IMG/VR virus record: IMGVR_UViG_2778261696_000003
Source of the DNA: a virus
Taxonomy: Duplodnaviria > Heunggongvirae > Uroviricota > Caudoviricetes
Strand: one strand, 5' to 3'
DNA length: 58,308 nucleotides
The notes under the pieces were generated by a model, which was not told the DNA's origin, made no database searches, and saw only the letters and a list, made by a program, of their open reading frames with translations. The position numbers and the translations under genes are program-made. The stretch's first letter is position 1; every line of letters starts with the position of its first letter. Below are positions 1 to 9,801 of the stretch, piece by piece.

Positions 1-49
1 TGAGACCATTAAAAGAGGCGTCAGAGGCAGAAAACGTTGCTTAACGTGA
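1..49 (+). CDS. tnpA: Tn3-family transposase, 3' end (partial; gene continues left of window, stop codon inside the terminal repeat)
   Basis: Open frame from window edge to TGA at 47-49, ending inside the 38-bp Tn3-type IR; Tn3-family tnpA genes typically terminate within the IR. No homology search possible. Confidence 0.4.
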   Translation, partial: ETIKRGVRGRKRCLT

Positions 50-77
50 GTTTTCGTTCCACTGAGCGTCAGACCCC
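40..77. mobile_element. Tn3-family 38-bp terminal inverted repeat (outer GGGG end at 77; transposon body lies left of window)
   Basis: Reverse complement of 40-77 is GGGGTCTGACGCTCAGTGGAACGAAAACTCACGTTAAG, the canonical Tn3/Tn2 terminal IR as I recall it; flanking bases differ from the bla-proximal end, so this is taken as the tnpA-proximal end. Confidence 0.8.
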
Positions 78-217
78 AAGTAAGAGCAAAATACCCCTGG
101 CTGGTCCCTGTTCATGCCGATGGTGTGGTTGGAGGCAAGAAAGAATTCACCTTGCTGAACAAGTCAGAGATGGAGTTACTGGCTGACGCCTATGAGATGG
201 CAAACATCATGCACTAA
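78..217 (+). pseudogene. Possible 3' remnant of a gene interrupted by the transposon (frame ends ...EFTLLNKSEMELLADAYEMANIMH*)
   Basis: Open frame without plausible start, abutting the IR and ending at TAA 215-217; identity unknown. Confidence 0.25.
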
Positions 218-406
218 TAAATATATTATTTTTAATGATAAATGATTGACAACTGACAAGTGACTTCAGTCAGAATCATCACATGCCCGGTACGGATGGA
301 TCCCTTTTCAAATATTCCATGGACGGCACAGTCTGAGTACCGGGCGCTACCTTCAGTTGTATTGCTAAGCCGCCGCTGGTGGCTTTTCTTTTTTGTAGGG
401 GGCGCT

Positions 407-1048
407 ATGGATAAGAAAATATGCGTTGTTTCGATGAGCGTCGGCAAACCGGCGTCAATGACTGCTGCATGGATCAATAACGAGCTGATAATGGCTGAGC
501 GGACCAGCTACCCTGAACGCCGCCGCGATATGGAACTCCAGCTGCTGCGCGAATTGCGAGAAAAAGAGGAAAAGGGTTTTATCGTGCTGGTGGAAGAGGA
601 AAACAGCTTTATTACTGGTCGAGTTGGCCAGCGTGTAAGGTTGCGCGATCCCTTCATGAACGGCAGGCCGGTACTAATTGAGGCAATGCAGATTTATAAG
701 GAGCTGGAACGCCAGAAAGCAATCAAGTTACCGCGCAAGGAATCCGGCAAATACATTCTCCACCAAAGCATCTTCGATTCCGAACACGATAAAAAAGGCG
801 ATGAATTTTTCAACATCAACTGGAGCGAAATAACGACAGAGCATGTTCTGACGTTACTATGTTGCTTTGCGACGGAATACAACAACGTTGCCAGCGCCGA
901 CTACATCAGGGCAATGGCTGGAGAAGTTGAGGCCCGCCAAGAACCATCGTTACTAAGTCCACTGATTAACATAATTCTGGGCACCCAGATACTGGAACAA
1001 AAAAAAGTGCCGAAAGGGGTATTAACAGGCAAGCATAATTATTTTTAA
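407..1048 (+). CDS. Hypothetical protein, 213 aa (accessory locus, upstream of the toxSAS gene)
   Basis: ORF track 260..1048; ATG at 407 preceded by AGGGGG Shine-Dalgarno-like sequence; co-oriented with and 93 bp upstream of the RelA/SpoT-domain gene; no recognisable motifs. Confidence 0.55.
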   Translation: MDKKICVVSMSVGKPASMTAAWINNELIMAERTSYPERRRDMELQLLRELREKEEKGFIVLVEEENSFITGRVGQRVRLRDPFMNGRPVLIEAMQIYKELERQKAIKLPRKESGKYILHQSIFDSEHDKKGDEFFNINWSEITTEHVLTLLCCFATEYNNVASADYIRAMAGEVEARQEPSLLSPLINIILGTQILEQKKVPKGVLTGKHNYF

Positions 1049-1141
1049 CAATTACATACAGTAATTTTGTGGTTACATTCTCCATTGATTTTCTAACCGC
1101 TTTATCATTAGATGTAACAGCATGTAAATCATTTAAAATGG

Positions 1142-2278
1142 ATGAAAGCAATGGGGAATGAAGTTTATCAAAGTCAAAAATGCAAGTTGAAATATTCAAA
1201 ATCTCAAATTGATAGGGCTGCTCAATTGATAAGGCACGGGTGTAGTGACGAAGAAAGGCAGCAATCTATTGAAATGATACAAAATTTCCGTGAGCTGCAT
1301 CTTTATCCATTAATGCTCATGAAAAATCATTTAGCAAGAGCAGCTGCTAAGGTTGACAAGGACAAAAAGATTCTCGTTGCAAGAAGACTTAAGCGACTTT
1401 CTACCATAATAGATAAACTAGAGCGTCCTAGTCTTGATGGAGGCAGAACTAGCAATGCAATTAAATTAACACGGATGCAGGACGTTGGCGGATGTAGGGC
1501 CATTGTCAGAAACTTAGACCAGTTGATACAGCTAAAGGAACGTCTTTTAAAAAGCAAATCTGTTCATAGGATTGTTAAAGAGTATGATTATCTTACTCCC
1601 AAAGACAGCGGCTATAGTGGAATCCACCTTGCATACAGTTGCTTCGATCAGAAAGAGGATCAATATCCGTGGCGAAAAACAAAGATTGAGATACAGTTAA
1701 GAACTCAATTGCAGCATGCTTGGGCTACCAGCCTTGAAATAATTGATACCCTTGAAGGTATCAAGCTGAAAACTTCAAGTGAAGGGCATCCAGAATGGAG
1801 ACGATTTTTCTATCTAGCCGGATGTCTTGTAGCGCACGACGAAAAAGCCTGCACTCTTGATGAGCTAGTTGTATCTCAGTATGAAGGCGAGCTTAAAGAG
1901 CTGGAACGGACTTTATCTGTACGGAGGAAACTAAGCACATACACCATCGCCTTAAATTTAACTTCTGACGCGAATTTGATTAAGAAGTTGCCAAAAAATC
2001 ATAAGGGGCATTACTTAGTAACAATGAGAAATGCAGAAAACAAGCCCAATACAAAAAACAAAAAAATGTTCCTAGTGTCTGTTCGCGCATTTAAAACAAA
2101 AGAAGCAGATGAAGCCCTTGAGGCCTTAAATAAAGACGATTCTAATCCTAATGTATTGATATCTGTTCTCGTTGCTACAGATAACATTAAGTCACTAAAA
2201 AAAGCCTACCCCAACTATTTTGGCTCAACAAACCAGTTTACAAAATTCTTAGATAAGCATCTTCGTAACGAAGGATAG
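1142..2278 (+). CDS. Fused toxSAS-type toxin-antitoxin (CapRel-like): N-terminal RelA/SpoT nucleotide pyrophosphokinase domain plus C-terminal extension
   Basis: 378 aa; RSH synthetase motifs visible: RRLKRLSTIIDKL...MQDVGGCRAIV and GYSGIHLAYS...KIEIQLRTQLQHAWATSLE; about 100-aa C-terminal extension; lies where P1 carries res/mod (recalled map). Confidence 0.75.
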   Translation: MKAMGNEVYQSQKCKLKYSKSQIDRAAQLIRHGCSDEERQQSIEMIQNFRELHLYPLMLMKNHLARAAAKVDKDKKILVARRLKRLSTIIDKLERPSLDGGRTSNAIKLTRMQDVGGCRAIVRNLDQLIQLKERLLKSKSVHRIVKEYDYLTPKDSGYSGIHLAYSCFDQKEDQYPWRKTKIEIQLRTQLQHAWATSLEIIDTLEGIKLKTSSEGHPEWRRFFYLAGCLVAHDEKACTLDELVVSQYEGELKELERTLSVRRKLSTYTIALNLTSDANLIKKLPKNHKGHYLVTMRNAENKPNTKNKKMFLVSVRAFKTKEADEALEALNKDDSNPNVLISVLVATDNIKSLKKAYPNYFGSTNQFTKFLDKHLRNEG

Positions 2279-2286
2279 TTGCTTAA

Positions 2287-2311
2287 TTTTGCCCGGTAAT
2301 TCCGGGCAAAA
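2287..2311. terminator. Perfect inverted repeat hairpin (TTTTGCCCGG-TAATT-CCGGGCAAAA) between convergent genes
   Basis: 10-bp arms read directly from sequence; no U-tract after the stem on either strand, so it may be a binding site rather than an intrinsic terminator. Confidence 0.3.
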
Positions 2312-2314
2312 TTG

Positions 2315-2563
2315 TCAATCTGCATTCAGGAGCAATGCGTTATCTATGATGATCTGCTCCCATTCTTCGAATGCCCGATCGCGGACGCCCTGGGGAACAC
2401 TGTTAGTTTTGAAATCGACCACCGTCCGCCATTTTCCGTCAGGACGGTACATGCGCAGAGCTTTACTTCCCCCTTCCCTGCGCACCTCAACGTTATGCTT
2501 ATCAGCAAACTCTTGTAATGCTCGTAGCGTCCCATGCTTTACTGTGTAGTATCGCTTTTTCAA
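2315..2563 (-). CDS. lxc: Lxc-like small protein (C1 co-repressor/Bof), 82 aa
   Basis: Position downstream of ulx-like and darB on the same strand as in P1; size matches recalled P1 Lxc. Synteny only. Confidence 0.45.
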   Translation of the reverse strand: MKKRYYTVKHGTLRALQEFADKHNVEVRREGGSKALRMYRPDGKWRTVVDFKTNSVPQGVRDRAFEEWEQIIIDNALLLNAD

Positions 2564-3000
2564 GTTTTCTCTCCAGCCTGTGCTAAGGCTTCAACTTCCA
2601 AATCGTAAGACTCAAACTCATAGTCCTGGTCGTCAACCTCTTCAGGCACTGGCAGTAAATGCCAGGCTGAGTATATCTGACCATTATCAAAACGCTCCTG
2701 GCTGTAGAGCGTCGCGGCTATGAGTGTTAGCGCCGGGCGGTCATAACGGTAAATTTTGCGAACGTCACGGTCAACGAGACGACCGAAATTACCATAACCG
2801 CGCTCCAGTAATAATTTTTTAATTTCCGGCCAGTATGGACCATAGCTGCGGTACAGGCGGGGATTTTTCAGTAATCGCCCGCGTAGCCCTGACAGGAAGA
2901 AATCAACGTATTCGTCTTCTGTCTTTCCTAACAACGCTGTACGGAGTACCGCCTCAAGATATGTTTTATTCGGTTTTATTGTATCAGATAGTGTGGCCAT
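2560..3000 (-). CDS. ulx: Ulx-like protein, 146 aa
   Basis: Immediately downstream of darB, 4-bp overlap with next gene; synteny with P1 darB operon. Confidence 0.45.
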   Translation of the reverse strand: MATLSDTIKPNKTYLEAVLRTALLGKTEDEYVDFFLSGLRGRLLKNPRLYRSYGPYWPEIKKLLLERGYGNFGRLVDRDVRKIYRYDRPALTLIAATLYSQERFDNGQIYSAWHLLPVPEEVDDQDYEFESYDLEVEALAQAGEKT

Positions 3001-3033: not shown

Positions 3034-6000
3034 TTATGCGTATTGTTGGATGACGGCCAGAACGTCCGCCACGTTGTGTTTTGTCTCGATAATCCACCAG
3101 TTACCCGGGAAATCGCTGTTCTTCGCCTTCGCTGGCAGCCAGCGAGCGCCGAATTTCGCCTTGATTGCGTCTTTCGCACGGAAAAGAACGCCTTTCATGC
3201 CTGAGGCTTCCTGAAGCCCAAATACCTCGCCAGCGGCGAATTTTGGTGCGTACATCATCTTCAGGTCGGCGGTGGATACGCGATAATTCAGACCAAGAGA
3301 CTGAGCTATGCTGGTGGCATCACCCTGTATTGATGATAACTCTTCTTGTTTCTCGTTTCTGGCGGCAATTTCTTCCTCCGTGATGTTGCCAAGGGCCAGG
3401 TTTATCCGATCAGCGTCTGCCTGTTTCTCTTCATCGGTGCGCCCGGCAAGTACCGTGTTAATTCTGTGCAATATCTCCACATGATTCTTGCGCATGCTGA
3501 GCAATTCCGGCGTAACCTCGTTAAGGTCCACCAGCCCAAGGATGGCAAGGTCGGTAAACATTGATACCAGGTTGTAGGTCATGCGATAGCTGAGTTGCCC
3601 ATAGGCTGATGGCAACTGCACCGCATCCATTTTATAGGCATCCATAAATTTAGAGCCGTCGTTTACGACATCCGCAATTGCCGGTGTGATTTTTCCTGTG
3701 GTGGCGGCCTCCCTGATTGCTGTTACCCACGATTGAGTCAGCGCGGCGACTGCATGATTCAGATTGACTTTCCGTTCTGCTGCAATGCGCGCGCTTGCTG
3801 CGTCCATTGCCTGCTTGATCTCGTCTTTATTGCTGTAAATGCCAATGGTGCCAAACTGTGCTGTGGTGATCTCATAATCTGACGCCCGGAACTCATTGGT
3901 ACCGAAAATGGCATTGGTGACTTCAAGTTCAGAATCCCCGTTACGAGTAGCCCCCTGGCTTGTTTTCTCCGGCATTCTGGCGATCGCATCCGCTATTTTC
4001 TCCTGAATTGCTTCAGGGGATAGCGTATCTCCGTATGACGCGATTACATCGCCATAATTGGAGCCAAACAGTTCAACCAGGAATGCTTCTGCCGAACGGA
4101 TCTGGCGGTTATTCCCTTCCGACATCATACCAAGCACCCATTTTGCAATTGACGACTTCAGCGCGCCGTCACGGCGATCCGGGTAAACCGCATGCTTCAG
4201 TGGGTCCGTATAGGTACCAACAAAATCAATGCTATAGCCTGACTCTGTAGTCTGAACGCCGTATGAGTCAGTGATTTTGATCATGCCGCGCTGCTGGAAA
4301 CGGTAGAAATCGTCACAGGAAACGATGTCGTTAATCCCGGCGATGGAGACGCCACCACTGATTTTCTGCATAACAGCATCTTCATCGGGAGTTACATCAA
4401 CCTGTTTATCCAGCGTCTTCACATCCCAGTTACCAGATTTGGTGCCTTTGAAGGTGAAGATGATCTCCACGTCTGCGCGCTGGCTGTCGAAGTCCAGCGA
4501 CTTAATGCGAACGATATCACCGGCACAATCGTAGTATTGGCCTACACGCCATGAGCGATCGCCGATAACAAGGAACTCACTCGCATGGTTAACCAGGTCA
4601 GGATCAACATCCAGAATGCCTTTATTTAATGCATCCTCCACCAGCGGGCGCAGGCGTTTGATATCCGTCGCGGCCTTCTGAGTACGGTTCAATAATTTCT
4701 CATAGCGGGAGATTGCTTGAGAGATATTAGCCTTGCGCTGAATGGCGCTTTTCAACGACGCGCGATACTGTGCTAACAACATACGGTCTGTGTGATGGAC
4801 ACTCCCCCAGCGTGCCTTCCAGTCTGCGTTATCCGCTGCCTTGGCCATTGCCGCCTGTTTGAATTTAGCTACCTCGGCGGTGGTCTTTTCAAGTTCCGCT
4901 TTGCTTCGCTCTAATTCAGCGGTAAGCACCTCCACATCCTCACCAGCTGCGTGCTGCGCCTTGATGTAGTTCTGAAGGTCGATAGTAGCCTGTTCTTTCT
5001 GGCGAGCGCGTTGCGCAGCTTTCGCCTTATCCATTTGAACCTGCATCATTGCCAGACGTTCGCCATCATCCTTAGCGGTATACATCTGCATTTCGATCAT
5101 ATCGTTGGCGTCGGCGTTCTCCATTTCTGACTTATCTGAACGGAGGATATCGGAGATCCAGCCTGCTTTACGCTTCAGCGTCTTCAGTCGGTATTCATCG
5201 AAAGAACCCTTGCCGCAGTAGTAGTGAACGCGAACGCTTGCACGGTTGGAGCCAACTCGGGCACCGCGACCGTTTCGTTGCGCAATACTGGCTGGAGTCC
5301 ATGGCAACGTCAGATGATGGATGTCAGTCGTTCCTCGATGCAGGTTGATACCCACCTCTGCCTTTTTGTTGCAGATGATGATCGGAGTCCGGCCCTCCTG
5401 GAAGTCGGCTGCAATCTTTTCCAGACCGCCCAACAACATTTCATTTTGCTGCGCGATATAGGCGTCATACAGAGCCATTTGCTCGTTGTATTTCGCTATC
5501 TGTGCATCTGTTGGTTCATCCGGTAACTCTTTCGGCGGTTTAACCGCTTTCAGTTTCTTACCGGTTTTACCTGCCTCGGCAACCGTCTGAGCATTCAGGA
5601 TCCCCACCTTTGAAGGTTCAAGGTTTAGAGCATTGCAGATAATGCGCTTGAGCTTCTGGTGCTGCGTTTTTTCATCGGTGAAGATGATTTGCTTACCTTC
5701 CGGGAAAAACTCCTTCAGCGTGGCGATCAGCTTCGCGTATTTCGGCGTAACGGGGTGAGTTACGGTCTGTTCGTCAATGCCAAACCTGGCCAGGCGCTTA
5801 TTCACTTCCTGCTCGAACGCTTCCGGAACCTGCAACTGAATAAACTCGCCCTTATCTATCAGGGAGTATTGCGATTGCTGCGTGATTGAATCATCACTGT
5901 CGTCGTCTTCGCTGGTGGCTTGTTTAGGCAAACTGTCCGCCAGCTGCTGCACCGCATCGGCGTACTCCGGCAGGAAACGATAGGTGATCCGGCGATAGTA

Positions 6001-9000
6001 CAGGTCCATGTCAGTACATACGCGGTCCATATCCCTGATTATTGAGAAGGTCGGACGGGCTTTCTCGTGCTCAATCACGCCGTCTTCATTGACCGAGGTC
6101 GTTACGCCATTGTTGGCTTTGGCCGCCGCTTCCGCCTGCTGACGCAATTCTTCATACGCCGCCAGTTGTTCTTCAGTAAGTGGTGCATCCTGCTGGTGTT
6201 CGTCCAGCTCCGGGATCTCCACGGTATCCTTAACGTCTTCCGCCGTTTTAAGCGTTACCCAGCGATGGAATATACCGCGCAGCGCATCAAGGTTTTCAAA
6301 GCCCACCAGCGCCATTTTTTCTTCAACTTCACCGCTGATTTTCTGTACCGTTTCCAGCCTGGTCTTGCCGAAGAATTTAACGAAGTCATCAGGACCGTAG
6401 ATCCCCATCTTCTGCCAGTATTCCTTCGGCAGAACATGAGAAAGCATGTTGTATGCATCGATCGGGGTGTTAACGACTGGCGTTGCAGTCAGGAGAACCG
6501 GCCCGCGCCCGCCATTCTTTTTCATCAGGTACGCGTTTTTAATTGCCATATCCCGCGCCGATTGCGCCACCGCGCTGGTGGGCAGATAGGCCAGTTGTGA
6601 CGCTTCGCGACCATTTTTATAGCTATTGCGGTAGTTGTGGCCTTCGTCAGCAATCACGCTGTCGAAGCCCATATCCTCAAAGTACGGATACTTCTCTGCT
6701 TTTTCGGTACCGGTATCTGAATACTCCGACAATACCCGGCGACGCGCCGCCTCTTTGCGGTGGGAGTCGGAGTCCATTGCGCTGGCTACGCGCCCGGCGG
6801 CAACGAAGTCATAAAGCATGTCTTGTGCATGCTCATCTACGGTGTCATCACGTAGCGGAATGCGGGCGTATTGTTCTTTGGTAAACACGACTGCACGGTA
6901 ATTTGAGTGCGGGATCGCGTTCATCCGCGCCGTGATAGTGGCTTCATCTGCCAGCTTAAGAGCATCGCGCATAACTGGAGTGCCATCAGTACCAAGAACA
7001 GGTTTACCGTTCTCATTGAGCACCGGCACCTGGCGAATCTGATCGCCATCCATCAGCACATCAAGACCGACGAACAGGTAGTTACTGAATGCCTCTTCAC
7101 TCAGGAACTCTTTTGCTTCGTAATACCAGTTTTCCAGCACTGATTTAGGCACTACATACGCAGTACGGGTGGAGCGACCGTTCTCATAGTTGAACGCCTC
7201 AAGCGCCAGCGCGGTCGTCGTTTTACCCAGCCCGGTGCCGAAGCCCAGGATGCCGCGCCCATCTTCGGACAGTCGTCTCACCTCGCTATTCTGGTAATCA
7301 AATGGCTGGCGCTTACCGCTTAATCCCTTCAACCCAAGCGGATCGCCAGAGTGTTCATACGGGATATTGCTATTGAACACATCGTTGTATTTGGCAACCA
7401 GCTCATCGTAGCGATCGTGCGTCTTGATCCACTTATTGAACTGGTCCTCAAGCAGTGCCATCTGCTCGCGGTAGCCGTTCGCCGTCGCGCTATCTTTGCC
7501 ACCGATACGCGCACCATTGAGATACTTTTCCAGCTGTGCCGGGAACCCGGTCGCGTTTTCACCTGATTTACGGTCCCACTCGTAGCGGATCTCGCCTGTT
7601 TCTTTATCCTTGCGCTGGACGACACCGTATCGGTGCCCGACGAACAGACCATCACCACCGTGATAGGTGTCAGAAACCATTTCGTCGCCTTCCAGCTGCA
7701 CTGACTGCACATAGCGAAGATCCGGATAGCCGTTTTCCTGCAAAAATTCCAGAATGACGGAACGGTCGAACCAACGGCTATTGAGCTTAAAGCGGATATT
7801 CTCTGCTGGCGTCTTGATGCGCTTCTCTTCGATCGCTGCCAGCTGATTAAGGACGTTGTTCTTTACTGGACCGTCGGGGAGTGTGGCAAGGAATTCCTGT
7901 TTTGGTGCCACTATCTCGTTAATGTCGCCGCTGGTGGCGCGGGCGAACGGAACAATCCCGCCATACGGTGAAACCGCAATGCCAGGGGTGCTGGCCAATA
8001 AATTAAGCAACTCGTCATCACTGGCTGGCAGTTCGCCGGTAAACGCAAGGCGGAAATCATCGAGCTGGATTGGATCGCGAGTGAGATCACTGTAGAGATA
8101 ACGCAGGGTGTCCTGATAGCTGGTAGAGTCATAACTGGCGCTGGAATCATGCGTAACCAGTTTTCCTGTCAGCTCGTCAGAAATAGTGCCATCCAGCTTA
8201 ATTGCACCACGGAAAGCAAACCAGGCGCGCGCACTGCTCCCCGATAATTTCGCTATCGGACCGCGACCGGGGTTACCAAAACGGTCAATCTCTGCCTGCA
8301 AACGGGATACCAGAGAAAGGCGCTGCTGTTCGATTTGTTCAGCACTATGCCCGGCGGCCTTCATGTCCTGATATTCAATTAACATCCGGCCAATCATCGC
8401 CCCGCGATACAAGCGTTCACGGTATTTTTCAGGCTGGCTGTTAATCCAGTCCACCAGCTGCACCATATCGTCGCTGATTGATGTGGTGTACTTATCGCGG
8501 ACATTTGCCATCTGGGTAAATGTCATGCCGAGACGGCCTTCTGTTGTAGTCAGGTTACGCTGAAGAGCCTCCCAGCTATCCGCGCCATAACTGGCAGCAT
8601 CGATCTTAAGTTCCTTCCCTGCATCAGCTTCAATCCAGCGACCACCAGCATATTTTTGCCATACGCCATTAATCAGGCGCATTTCCCCTTCACCAACAAC
8701 GTCTGCGGTCGGTGACGGTTCAGCCATATCGAGCAAAGACCAGTCGATACGGCTTTCGAAACGATGAATCAGCTTCGCTTTAAGAGCCTGGTTATCAATC
8801 TGACCGTCGGCACGAACCTCAATACGCCCCTGGAAGCCCTTTTCCTGGGTGCCATGAACAAACCGGCGGCCATCCTTTTCAAACCACTTGCCAGAAATAA
8901 ACGTTGACCAAAGCACATTTGCCGATTCGAGAGTGCTTTCATCCACCAGGGGGATTTTCTCAGCCATCTCTGCCGGATGTTTGCGCATCAGCACCACATC

Positions 9001-9801
9001 TACGACCGTACTGGTCCCGTTAGCGTCAAAAGTACCGGTAGGCAAGCGGTGGGCACCAAGAAATTCAGCTTTCCGTGATAGGCGCAGGCGTAACCGCTTC
9101 ATGTTTGAACCTGAAACAATGGACGGCGGCACAATCACGCACATGAATCCGCCTGGCTTTATCTTGTCCAGCATGCGGAGCATGAAGTAAGAACCCATGT
9201 CCGTTTCTTCTGCGTAAGGCTTATCGATGTTGCGTGTGTTATCACGACCACCGAACGGAACGTTACCCACAACATGGTCGAATGAATCGTTAGGCGTGCT
9301 TACAGCCAGTTGTTCGAACGGGGAAATCTGTACGCTGTCTTCCGGATGTAACAGCTGGTTTATACGACCGGAAACACTGCTGATCTCAGTCGCGGTCATC
9401 ACCGTACCAACCGGTTTTGTCTCATTAAAAACGCCGGTTCCCGCCGATGGTTCCAGAGTGTTACCTACGTCCGCGCCGTAGAGCTTCATGATCTCCCAGA
9501 CACCTTCAGCGATCGGCTTTGGTGTGTAATATTCGGAGACGGACCCGCCAATGCCGCCTTCGCCGGTGTACCCAGCCAGGATCTGGCGCTGTTCATCTGT
9601 CAGTGTCGCGCCGTCCACCAGCGAATTAAGCAAATCTATCGCCTTCTGATTCGCCTCCCGGCGTAGTCGGTCATAGCTTTTGCCTTCCACCTTTTCCACG
9701 CCGTATCTAATCGGCGCTCGGTGAGATGTTATTGCCCTAATGTATTTCAATATTTCGCTGACACTTGAACAGCGAAACACCCCTATAGATAGCTTGTTCA
9801 T
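3034..9801 (-). CDS. darB: DarB-like giant anti-restriction protein (N6-adenine methyltransferase plus helicase domains), 2255 aa
   Basis: 2255 aa as recalled for P1 DarB; methyltransferase motifs (EPSAGTG; VVGNVPFGG) and helicase motifs (GFGTGLGKTT Walker A; VIADEGHNYRN) read in translation; RBS AAGGA before ATG. Confidence 0.85.
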   Translation of the reverse strand: MNKLSIGVFRCSSVSEILKYIRAITSHRAPIRYGVEKVEGKSYDRLRREANQKAIDLLNSLVDGATLTDEQRQILAGYTGEGGIGGSVSEYYTPKPIAEGVWEIMKLYGADVGNTLEPSAGTGVFNETKPVGTVMTATEISSVSGRINQLLHPEDSVQISPFEQLAVSTPNDSFDHVVGNVPFGGRDNTRNIDKPYAEETDMGSYFMLRMLDKIKPGGFMCVIVPPSIVSGSNMKRLRLRLSRKAEFLGAHRLPTGTFDANGTSTVVDVVLMRKHPAEMAEKIPLVDESTLESANVLWSTFISGKWFEKDGRRFVHGTQEKGFQGRIEVRADGQIDNQALKAKLIHRFESRIDWSLLDMAEPSPTADVVGEGEMRLINGVWQKYAGGRWIEADAGKELKIDAASYGADSWEALQRNLTTTEGRLGMTFTQMANVRDKYTTSISDDMVQLVDWINSQPEKYRERLYRGAMIGRMLIEYQDMKAAGHSAEQIEQQRLSLVSRLQAEIDRFGNPGRGPIAKLSGSSARAWFAFRGAIKLDGTISDELTGKLVTHDSSASYDSTSYQDTLRYLYSDLTRDPIQLDDFRLAFTGELPASDDELLNLLASTPGIAVSPYGGIVPFARATSGDINEIVAPKQEFLATLPDGPVKNNVLNQLAAIEEKRIKTPAENIRFKLNSRWFDRSVILEFLQENGYPDLRYVQSVQLEGDEMVSDTYHGGDGLFVGHRYGVVQRKDKETGEIRYEWDRKSGENATGFPAQLEKYLNGARIGGKDSATANGYREQMALLEDQFNKWIKTHDRYDELVAKYNDVFNSNIPYEHSGDPLGLKGLSGKRQPFDYQNSEVRRLSEDGRGILGFGTGLGKTTTALALEAFNYENGRSTRTAYVVPKSVLENWYYEAKEFLSEEAFSNYLFVGLDVLMDGDQIRQVPVLNENGKPVLGTDGTPVMRDALKLADEATITARMNAIPHSNYRAVVFTKEQYARIPLRDDTVDEHAQDMLYDFVAAGRVASAMDSDSHRKEAARRRVLSEYSDTGTEKAEKYPYFEDMGFDSVIADEGHNYRNSYKNGREASQLAYLPTSAVAQSARDMAIKNAYLMKKNGGRGPVLLTATPVVNTPIDAYNMLSHVLPKEYWQKMGIYGPDDFVKFFGKTRLETVQKISGEVEEKMALVGFENLDALRGIFHRWVTLKTAEDVKDTVEIPELDEHQQDAPLTEEQLAAYEELRQQAEAAAKANNGVTTSVNEDGVIEHEKARPTFSIIRDMDRVCTDMDLYYRRITYRFLPEYADAVQQLADSLPKQATSEDDDSDDSITQQSQYSLIDKGEFIQLQVPEAFEQEVNKRLARFGIDEQTVTHPVTPKYAKLIATLKEFFPEGKQIIFTDEKTQHQKLKRIICNALNLEPSKVGILNAQTVAEAGKTGKKLKAVKPPKELPDEPTDAQIAKYNEQMALYDAYIAQQNEMLLGGLEKIAADFQEGRTPIIICNKKAEVGINLHRGTTDIHHLTLPWTPASIAQRNGRGARVGSNRASVRVHYYCGKGSFDEYRLKTLKRKAGWISDILRSDKSEMENADANDMIEMQMYTAKDDGERLAMMQVQMDKAKAAQRARQKEQATIDLQNYIKAQHAAGEDVEVLTAELERSKAELEKTTAEVAKFKQAAMAKAADNADWKARWGSVHHTDRMLLAQYRASLKSAIQRKANISQAISRYEKLLNRTQKAATDIKRLRPLVEDALNKGILDVDPDLVNHASEFLVIGDRSWRVGQYYDCAGDIVRIKSLDFDSQRADVEIIFTFKGTKSGNWDVKTLDKQVDVTPDEDAVMQKISGGVSIAGINDIVSCDDFYRFQQRGMIKITDSYGVQTTESGYSIDFVGTYTDPLKHAVYPDRRDGALKSSIAKWVLGMMSEGNNRQIRSAEAFLVELFGSNYGDVIASYGDTLSPEAIQEKIADAIARMPEKTSQGATRNGDSELEVTNAIFGTNEFRASDYEITTAQFGTIGIYSNKDEIKQAMDAASARIAAERKVNLNHAVAALTQSWVTAIREAATTGKITPAIADVVNDGSKFMDAYKMDAVQLPSAYGQLSYRMTYNLVSMFTDLAILGLVDLNEVTPELLSMRKNHVEILHRINTVLAGRTDEEKQADADRINLALGNITEEEIAARNEKQEELSSIQGDATSIAQSLGLNYRVSTADLKMMYAPKFAAGEVFGLQEASGMKGVLFRAKDAIKAKFGARWLPAKAKNSDFPGNWWIIETKHNVADVLAVIQQYA

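Follow-up and report, generated by a model that had tools for sequence, protein, structure and literature searches.

The open reading frame upstream of a CapRel-type gene in a P1-like phage-plasmid is very probably mat, a known gene of the P1 family

The open reading frame (ORF) at 407..1048, on the + strand of a 58,308-nucleotide stretch of viral DNA (Caudoviricetes; IMG/VR record IMGVR_UViG_2778261696_000003; the whole stretch is referred to here as the window), can be assigned with high confidence to mat, an already known gene of the P1 family, whose product would serve the maturation of virions or DNA and not the toxSAS; next to it, an autonomous single-gene CapRel cassette fills the variable slot that separates mat from lxc. 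The initial annotation had seen no assignable features in the 213-amino acid (aa) protein, a description that fails because the protein is the named P1 protein Mat. The identity of the gene, its synteny, the borders of the cassette, the lack of conserved linkage and, by structure prediction, the fold are shown by the analysis; the molecular activity proposed below for Mat is inferred.

The window shows 100% identity to P1-like (mostly IncY-typed) phage-plasmids of Escherichia. The 213-aa protein shares 94.8% aa identity over residues 1-213 with Mat of P1 and P7 (tblastn, E 1e-109) and 96% identity with Mat of RCS47 and SJ46. It covers the whole of the PHROG 1837 profile (E 1.4e-112), and several database records label it ‘maturation control protein’. 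Gene order agrees with this identity: the window reads Tn3 end/ref remnant, mat, RelA/SpoT gene, lxc, ulx and darB, and P1 reads cra-cre-c8-ref-mat-(res-mod)-lxc-ulx-darB, an identical order save for the gene after mat. The neighbours of mat in P1 and P7, where it was formerly gene 1, are thus those found here (ref upstream, lxc-ulx-darB past the slot), as is the operator/promoter region. In contrast, the last ~25 residues of the window Mat belong to another mosaic variant, owing to recombination junctions inside the 3′ end of mat, and the slot after mat, filled by the EcoP1/EcoP7 res-mod genes in P1 and P7, holds CapRel in the window. The features of this region are as follows.

1..77, - strand: Tn3-family transposon end, with a 38-bp inverted repeat at 40-77; inserted in ref; identity to the annotated Tn3 left end of P7 is 100%.
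78..217, + strand: 3′ remnant of ref (its last 140 nt), 98% identical to P1 2498-2620; the P1 ref end at 2637 corresponds to window 217.
208..276, + strand: mat control region, with Omat (the C1 operator) at ~208-225, the -35 element TTGACA at 246-251, the -22 box of the late promoter at 258-266 and the -10 element at 271-276.
367..395, + strand: terminator-like hairpin and T run in the mat leader, with an 8-pair stem AAGCCGCCGCTGGTGGCTT, then TTCTTTTTTG; from a consensus scan.
407..1048, + strand: mat, 213 aa, particle maturation or ‘maturation control’; predicted domain in residues 1-160, variable tail in residues ~190-213.
1049..2314, no strand: cargo cassette in the mat/lxc slot, of low G+C content (0.30-0.44), bounded by the mat and lxc stop codons.
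1151..2278, + strand: CapRel-type fused toxSAS, 375 aa from the probable ATG at 1151 (378 aa from the ATG at 1142); Pfam RelA_SpoT.
2315..2563, - strand: lxc, which encodes a modulator of the C1 repressor and forms the right border of the slot; 100% aa identity to Lxc of P1, P7, RCS47 and SJ46.
2560..3000, - strand: ulx, 98.6-100% aa identity to P1 Ulx/P7 OlxA.
3034..9801, - strand: darB, a 2255-aa methyltransferase/helicase for defence against restriction; N-6 DNA methylase/DarB in identical plasmids and in P1.

The description of the ORF as real, co-oriented with the toxSAS gene, preceded by a good ribosome-binding site and ending 93 bp before that gene is borne out. It starts with an ATG at 407 and comprises 213 codons followed by a stop codon at 1046-1048, a Shine-Dalgarno-like AGGGGG lies at 397-402, 4 nt ahead of the ATG, and the first ATG of the toxSAS gene is at 1142. 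A chance ORF is excluded because the same gene recurs in 694 plasmid records, 22 phage records and 143 clusters of a library of 1.84 billion proteins. As to the start codon, the mechanical ORF reaches upstream to a GTG at 260, and the P1 reference record (NC_005856) together with some RefSeq plasmids annotate a 250-aa Mat from an upstream ATG that corresponds to window 296 (window 296-406, P1 2716-2826). These upstream starts, giving 250 or 262 aa, were rejected on three grounds. In the alignment, SJ46 and one GNAT-cargo plasmid lack 1 nt of the G run at 398-402, which shifts the upstream ATG into another frame; the match to the PHROG 1837 profile sets in at residue 1 of the 213-aa form; and distant Mat homologues (identity down to 17-40%) all begin at an equivalent M-[D/N]-K-K-I. 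Judged from these sequence comparisons, the 213-aa start is the correct one.

Upstream of the start, window 78-406 (330 bp) differs little from the stretch of P1 in which Omat, Pmat (sigma-70) and LPmat (an overlapping late promoter) are annotated. The coordinates of the control elements were transferred from the P1 record with an offset of 2420, and the control stretch is invariant over most of its length in an alignment with P1, RCS47, SJ46 and a GNAT-cargo plasmid. Following the P1 annotation, mat would have its own control region, in which a C1-repressed sigma-70 promoter overlaps an Lpa-dependent late promoter, and because that region is conserved here, mat is expected to be silent in the lysogen and expressed in lytic growth. 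The leader hairpin at 367-395 lies between the annotated Pmat/LPmat and the ribosome-binding site, only ~10 nt short of the latter; its sequence is the same in the five aligned elements (the window and the four just named), and the P1 record does not annotate it. This hairpin could be an attenuator of mat expression.

The borders of the slot were established by comparing the window with 14 other P1-type elements. On the left, most of them lose homology at 1048-1053, three do so already at 916-1042 and one only at 1063; on the right, homology resumes at 2311-2317. The borders correspond to the stop codons of mat and lxc; between these stops the G+C content drops from about 0.50 to 0.30-0.44. 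Elsewhere the slot contains at least nine other unrelated cargoes, or nothing, as listed here.

Type III res-mod: P1, P7 and one plasmid.
No cargo (about 40 bp): RCS47.
SIR2 protein: a plasmid.
PIN/DUF4935 protein, on the opposite strand: plasmids.
DUF2971 protein, on the opposite strand: a plasmid.
GNAT acetyltransferase: a plasmid.
GNAT split by an ISApl1-mcr-1-pap2-ISApl1 composite transposon: pHYEC7-mcr1, NZ_KX518745.1 8952-14311.
YaaC protein and a 169-aa protein: plasmid NZ_CP060935.1 8844-10393.
EAL and helix-turn-helix genes with IS3: a plasmid.

Several of these cargoes match the PADLOC candidate single-gene defence families PDC-S25, S31 and S34, and the mcr-1 transposon inside the GNAT gene of pHYEC7-mcr1 means that the slot also captures resistance genes. 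The cargo of NZ_CP060935.1 combines a YaaC-family protein (Pfam, E 1e-45) with a 169-aa partner that has a weak nucleoside 2-deoxyribosyltransferase-like match; neither protein is matched in PADLOC, and on account of their location in the slot they are possibly an uncharacterised defence system. The res-mod region of P1-like phage-plasmids has already been described as a low-G+C ‘highly variable region 1’ (PMC9603915), and the cassette at 1049..2314 resembles it in position and in low G+C content. Beyond that description, the stop-to-stop borders and the catalogue of single-gene defence candidates (PDC-S25, -S31, -S33 and -S34) were not found in the accessible literature. On a P1-like plasmid carrying type III restriction-modification (NZ_CP027443.1 13886-16156), no ulx or darB is listed between lxc and the portal gene; the Dar anti-restriction locus is apparently deleted there, with PLSDB gene tables being incomplete.

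The gene filling the slot in the window belongs to the CapRel type. Its protein matches Pfam PF04607 (RelA/SpoT, E 3e-12) and the PADLOC single-gene candidate PDC-S33 (E 8e-86), and along its full length it shares 74% identity with CapRelSJ46, the occupant of this slot in Salmonella phage SJ46. Two in-frame ATGs are available, at 1142 (93-bp gap after mat) and three codons on at 1151 (102-bp gap). As RefSeq and the SJ46 annotation use the second one (MGNEV/MGSEV) and a Shine-Dalgarno-like GGATGA lies upstream of it, the gene in the window is probably 1151..2278, encoding 375 aa. The CapRelSJ46 ORF with only 100-200 bp of upstream DNA sufficed for phage defence, and the purified protein was regulated in vitro by a phage capsid protein (PMC9712102). 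In SJ46, mat ends 112 bp upstream of the CapRel gene, and since the inserts had 100-200 bp of upstream DNA, these constructs contained no complete mat. The toxSAS of the window is of the same CapRel type and at the same locus as the autonomous CapRelSJ46, and the cassette at 1049..2314 would be a self-contained single-gene defence unit with its own AT-rich upstream region. The two-gene toxSAS operons (PhRel/ATphRel and FaRel2/ATfaRel2) are a different case: Mat is unlike their antitoxins, having neither homology to a known antitoxin family nor conserved linkage.

Linkage between the two genes was assessed from both sides. Seen from mat, the arrangement mat-CapRel-lxc is contiguous in 72 of 703 region-matching plasmid records, and mat plus the cassette (407..2314) in 78 of 696 matching E. 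coli complete genomes; CapRel is thus present in only about 10-11% of the mat-carrying elements, and about 89-90% are without it. Mat DNA in the plasmid collection is enterobacterial only (694 records), and plasmids of Nostoc, Aliarcobacter, Acinetobacter and rhizobia carry distant RelA/SpoT relatives. Seen from CapRel, a Kluyvera chromosome has an intact homologue, 68% identical, among GmrSD, resolvase and integrase genes, and Mat is absent from the adjoining DNA (about 4.4 kb upstream and 6 kb downstream). Mat is likewise missing near a copy on an Enterobacter chromosome, which appears degraded; the scan of genome contigs for CapRel gave three loci only, of which one had too short an upstream stretch and two were apparently degraded. 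Searches of Mat against Pfam, NCBIfam and PADLOC gave no match to antitoxin or defence-associated families.

Variation within Mat is concentrated at its C-terminus. E. coli P1-like elements hardly differ in residues 1-165, and the last 25-45 residues exist as several divergent variants, all of which keep a VPxGxLTGK motif; residues ~190-213 form a variable, flexible tail that ends in the conserved LTGK. At the DNA level the 3′ end of mat (window 916-1048, residues about 170-213) is a recombination mosaic. The tail variants partly travel with the neighbouring cargo, one being found in res-mod elements and another in PIN/DUF4935 elements. Co-evolution of the C-terminus with CapRel was rejected: the window tail is common to GNAT-cargo plasmids, and the SJ46 tail resembles that of RCS47, where the slot is empty.

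What Mat does at the molecular level can be approached through its fold. A profile search of 1.84 billion representatives returned 143 relatives, nearly all of them stand-alone proteins of about 190-230 aa. Two long proteins (1062 and 700 aa) match the profile five to seven times over, in separate stretches that each span no more than profile positions ~58-107, which suggests a repeated sub-motif rather than a Mat domain. An AlphaFold2 model based on a 77-sequence alignment reached a predicted local distance difference test score (pLDDT) of 91.2 and a predicted template modelling score (pTM) of 0.78, with residues 1-160 above 90 in pLDDT; an earlier model from 14 sequences was weaker and had the same topology. 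For residues 1-160 the high-confidence prediction is a domain like the large-terminase nuclease (RNase H-like). Sequence comparison gave no relationship in Pfam, NCBIfam or PDB sequences (the profile search against PDB sequences yielded insignificant matches only), and Pfam scans of all 77 family members returned noise only. The modelled resemblance is to the nuclease domain of large terminases (T4 gp17, Sf6 gp2, G20c, E217 and human cytomegalovirus UL89), whose type of RNase H-like fold Mat would share. Unlike them, Mat is stand-alone and has no ATPase domain; sequence identity amounts to only 4-11% and profiles give no match, Ser/Thr/Cys takes the place of the strand-1 Asp, and conservation of the third acidic position is poor.

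The catalytic positions were compared in a strand register inferred from secondary structure, not from superposition. Position 9, at the end of strand 1, matches the position of the first catalytic Asp in RuvC and the terminases and is Ser in 40, Thr in 17 and Cys in 11 members (68 of the 77). Positions 63-64, at the end of strand 4, are nearly universally acidic (74-76 of 77). At position 138, 48 members have Asp and 20 have Asn, the P1 clade among the latter; position 145 is poorly conserved, with an acidic residue in 35 of 77. A RuvC fold with the D-E-D/H-D tetrad, as in RuvC-type Holliday-junction resolvases, was not found in Mat. On this model, Mat would be a terminase-nuclease-like factor with an incomplete Asp-Glu-Asp metal site and work as an atypical nuclease or, if not catalytic, as a module binding DNA or the portal. 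For the latter, a known precedent is the C-terminal ‘vestigial nuclease’ of phi29 gp16, a module of terminase-nuclease fold that has lost its catalytic residues and has a binding or structural role in packaging. This role is the one suggested for Mat if it is non-catalytic; the phi29 module is, however, fused to the packaging ATPase, whereas Mat is a separate gene.

P1-type elements have a separate terminase, PacA/PacB. PacB (494 aa, 425-1906 of one P1-type locus) has no significant Pfam terminase match, and against the Sf6 large terminase it gives only a weak, statistically non-significant collinear match that includes the C-terminal nuclease region (E 0.28). For these reasons the P1 terminase is, at the sequence level, poorly covered by current family models. 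The idea that Mat supplies a nuclease missing from PacB is not favoured, on weak evidence, given that this alignment of PacB with the Sf6 terminase extends over the nuclease region. Taken further, in a reading that is less likely than not, Mat and its relatives (~140 clusters at 50% identity, no Pfam model) may be a family of stand-alone, terminase-nuclease-like proteins that has gone unrecognised and that provides P1-type myoviruses with a second DNA-maturation factor beside the terminase. Mat would be an atypical nuclease or a catalytically degenerate mimic of the terminase nuclease domain, docking on DNA or the portal via its conserved C-terminal tail, and ancestrally its gene would have headed the baseplate operon.

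Several observations weigh against the reading of mat as a maturation gene independent of CapRel. The CapRel clade of enterobacterial plasmids is nearly always beside mat (72 of about 74 records), an adjacency attributed to residence in the P1 slot. The consensus scan found no + strand terminator-like site between the mat stop at 1048 and CapRel at 1151, and the genes are co-oriented. Nuclease activity of Mat is doubtful because of the residues at the strand-1 position, in the register given above. Finally, knock-down of P1 mat by CRISPR interference lowered plating only to an efficiency of plating of 0.28 (PMC10695390); older literature lists mat as essential on the basis of Lehnherr 2001 (as cited in PMC10695390), and the classical mat phenotype is taken here from secondary citations and the P1 GenBank annotation. 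A two-gene system, with Mat as a functional partner of CapRel (regulator, sensor, extra antitoxin or anti-defence), would account for the adjacency, the shared orientation, the 93-102 bp gap lacking a terminator-like site and the placement of both CapRel alleles of P1-like elements directly after mat. Such a system is nevertheless very improbable, since most mat genes occur without CapRel, in front of a slot that holds many unrelated cargoes or none, and mat predates the cassette, as seen from the difference in G+C content and from the loss of homology at about the mat stop codon in most variants. Moreover, the Kluyvera CapRel homologue exists without Mat, CapRelSJ46 works alone (PMC9712102), the tail variants of Mat do not co-vary with CapRel, and mat, being C1-repressed in the P1 annotation, should be off in the lysogen, when CapRel must guard. 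The partner (regulator, sensor or anti-defence) envisaged in the initial annotation finds no support in the linkage of ~10-11%, the many other cargoes, the Kluyvera locus or the autonomy of CapRelSJ46. Its other option, an independent accessory gene, stands as to independence but not as to accessory nature, mat being a conserved backbone morphogenesis gene. Low co-occurrence together with a clear, unrelated annotation as mat is the combination that the initial annotation had named as refuting a partnership. The CapRel gene of the window follows the usual single-gene pattern; as a toxSAS partner the ORF before it is of no concern, being ordinary and already explained. A purely transcriptional link, in which read-through from Pmat/LPmat raises CapRel expression during the lytic cycle of the element without any protein partnership, fits the co-orientation of the genes, the empty result of the terminator scan over 1048-1151 and the same orientation of both CapRel alleles. 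It is still improbable, as other cargoes are reversed (PIN, DUF4935, DUF2971 and res/mod) and CapRelSJ46 was expressed from its own 100-200 bp upstream region.

Within a role in morphogenesis, two further explanations compete with that of a maturation factor of incomplete metal site. Mat could be an active DNA nuclease, working on its own in the manner of a terminase nuclease or RuvC, which would remove branches from replicated or packaged DNA, or trim it, and so allow packaging or head completion to finish, with T4 gp49, T7 gp3 and the T4 head-completion nuclease gp4 as functional analogues. This activity appears rather unlikely: the family consensus has no acidic residue at the strand-1 position, the P1 clade has Asn at position 138, under half of the members are acidic at position 145 and no nuclease family gives a sequence match, while the P1 terminase may have a nuclease domain of its own, PacB giving the non-significant match to the Sf6 terminase noted above. 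Alternatively, Mat could assist the assembly of the tail or baseplate, as chaperone or initiator, and not the maturation of DNA or heads, a view that stems from distant relatives. In D6 and four metagenomic relatives, mat directly precedes a gene-26-like gene of ~105-113 aa, similar in length to P1 gene 26; in the metagenomic ones the mat stop codon overlaps the next start codon. A ~390-400-aa gene-25-like gene comes next, then a baseplate module including Phage_base_V and PAAR, so that mat is the first gene of a baseplate operon, often with ref (RecA_dep_nuc) directly upstream. P1 gp26 resembles the T4 baseplate protein gp53 (PMC9024508). A baseplate role remains unlikely, because a terminase-nuclease-like fold is that of no known baseplate component or chaperone, mat is apart from the 26-25-7-24-6-5 operon in P1 and in the window, operon position alone is weak evidence and Mat was not found in the text of the P1 virion proteome paper (PMC9024508). 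The T4 comparison is also instructive for gp4, a separate small nuclease on which morphogenesis depends in T4, a phage with structural genes similar to those of P1; the gp4 gene adjoins gene 53, the counterpart of the P1 gene 26 that follows mat in distant relatives. Orthology of Mat and gp4 was rejected, since gp4 has a restriction-endonuclease (TnsA-like) fold instead of an RNase H-like one (PMC7824862) and gene 4 is divergent from gene 53; by analogy only, gp4 may serve as a functional precedent for a separate morphogenetic nuclease.

At its left end the window is shaped by a transposon. The Tn3 insertion point corresponds to P1 coordinate 2498, within ref, the recombination enhancement (RecA-dependent nuclease) gene, and P1-like plasmids without this insertion match the window only from position 78 on. 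P7 likewise has Tn3 in ref, at another position (window about 195).

The fold assignment for Mat and its wider family are possibly the only new element here, with no mention in the accessible literature, a body that does not cover the primary mat papers. The mat/lxc junction emerges as a precisely bounded slot that exchanges single-gene defence candidates (CapRel, SIR2, PIN/DUF4935 and DUF2971) and type III restriction-modification systems, and it is convenient both for mining new defence genes, such as the two-gene YaaC cargo, and for inserting test genes. As for Mat, which is without biochemical assignment in accessible sources, the predicted terminase-nuclease-like fold bears on the meaning of ‘maturation control’ in P1. 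If the proposed family is real, it would give a molecular handle on the old P1 ‘gene 1/particle maturation’ phenotype, a matter unrelated to CapRel.
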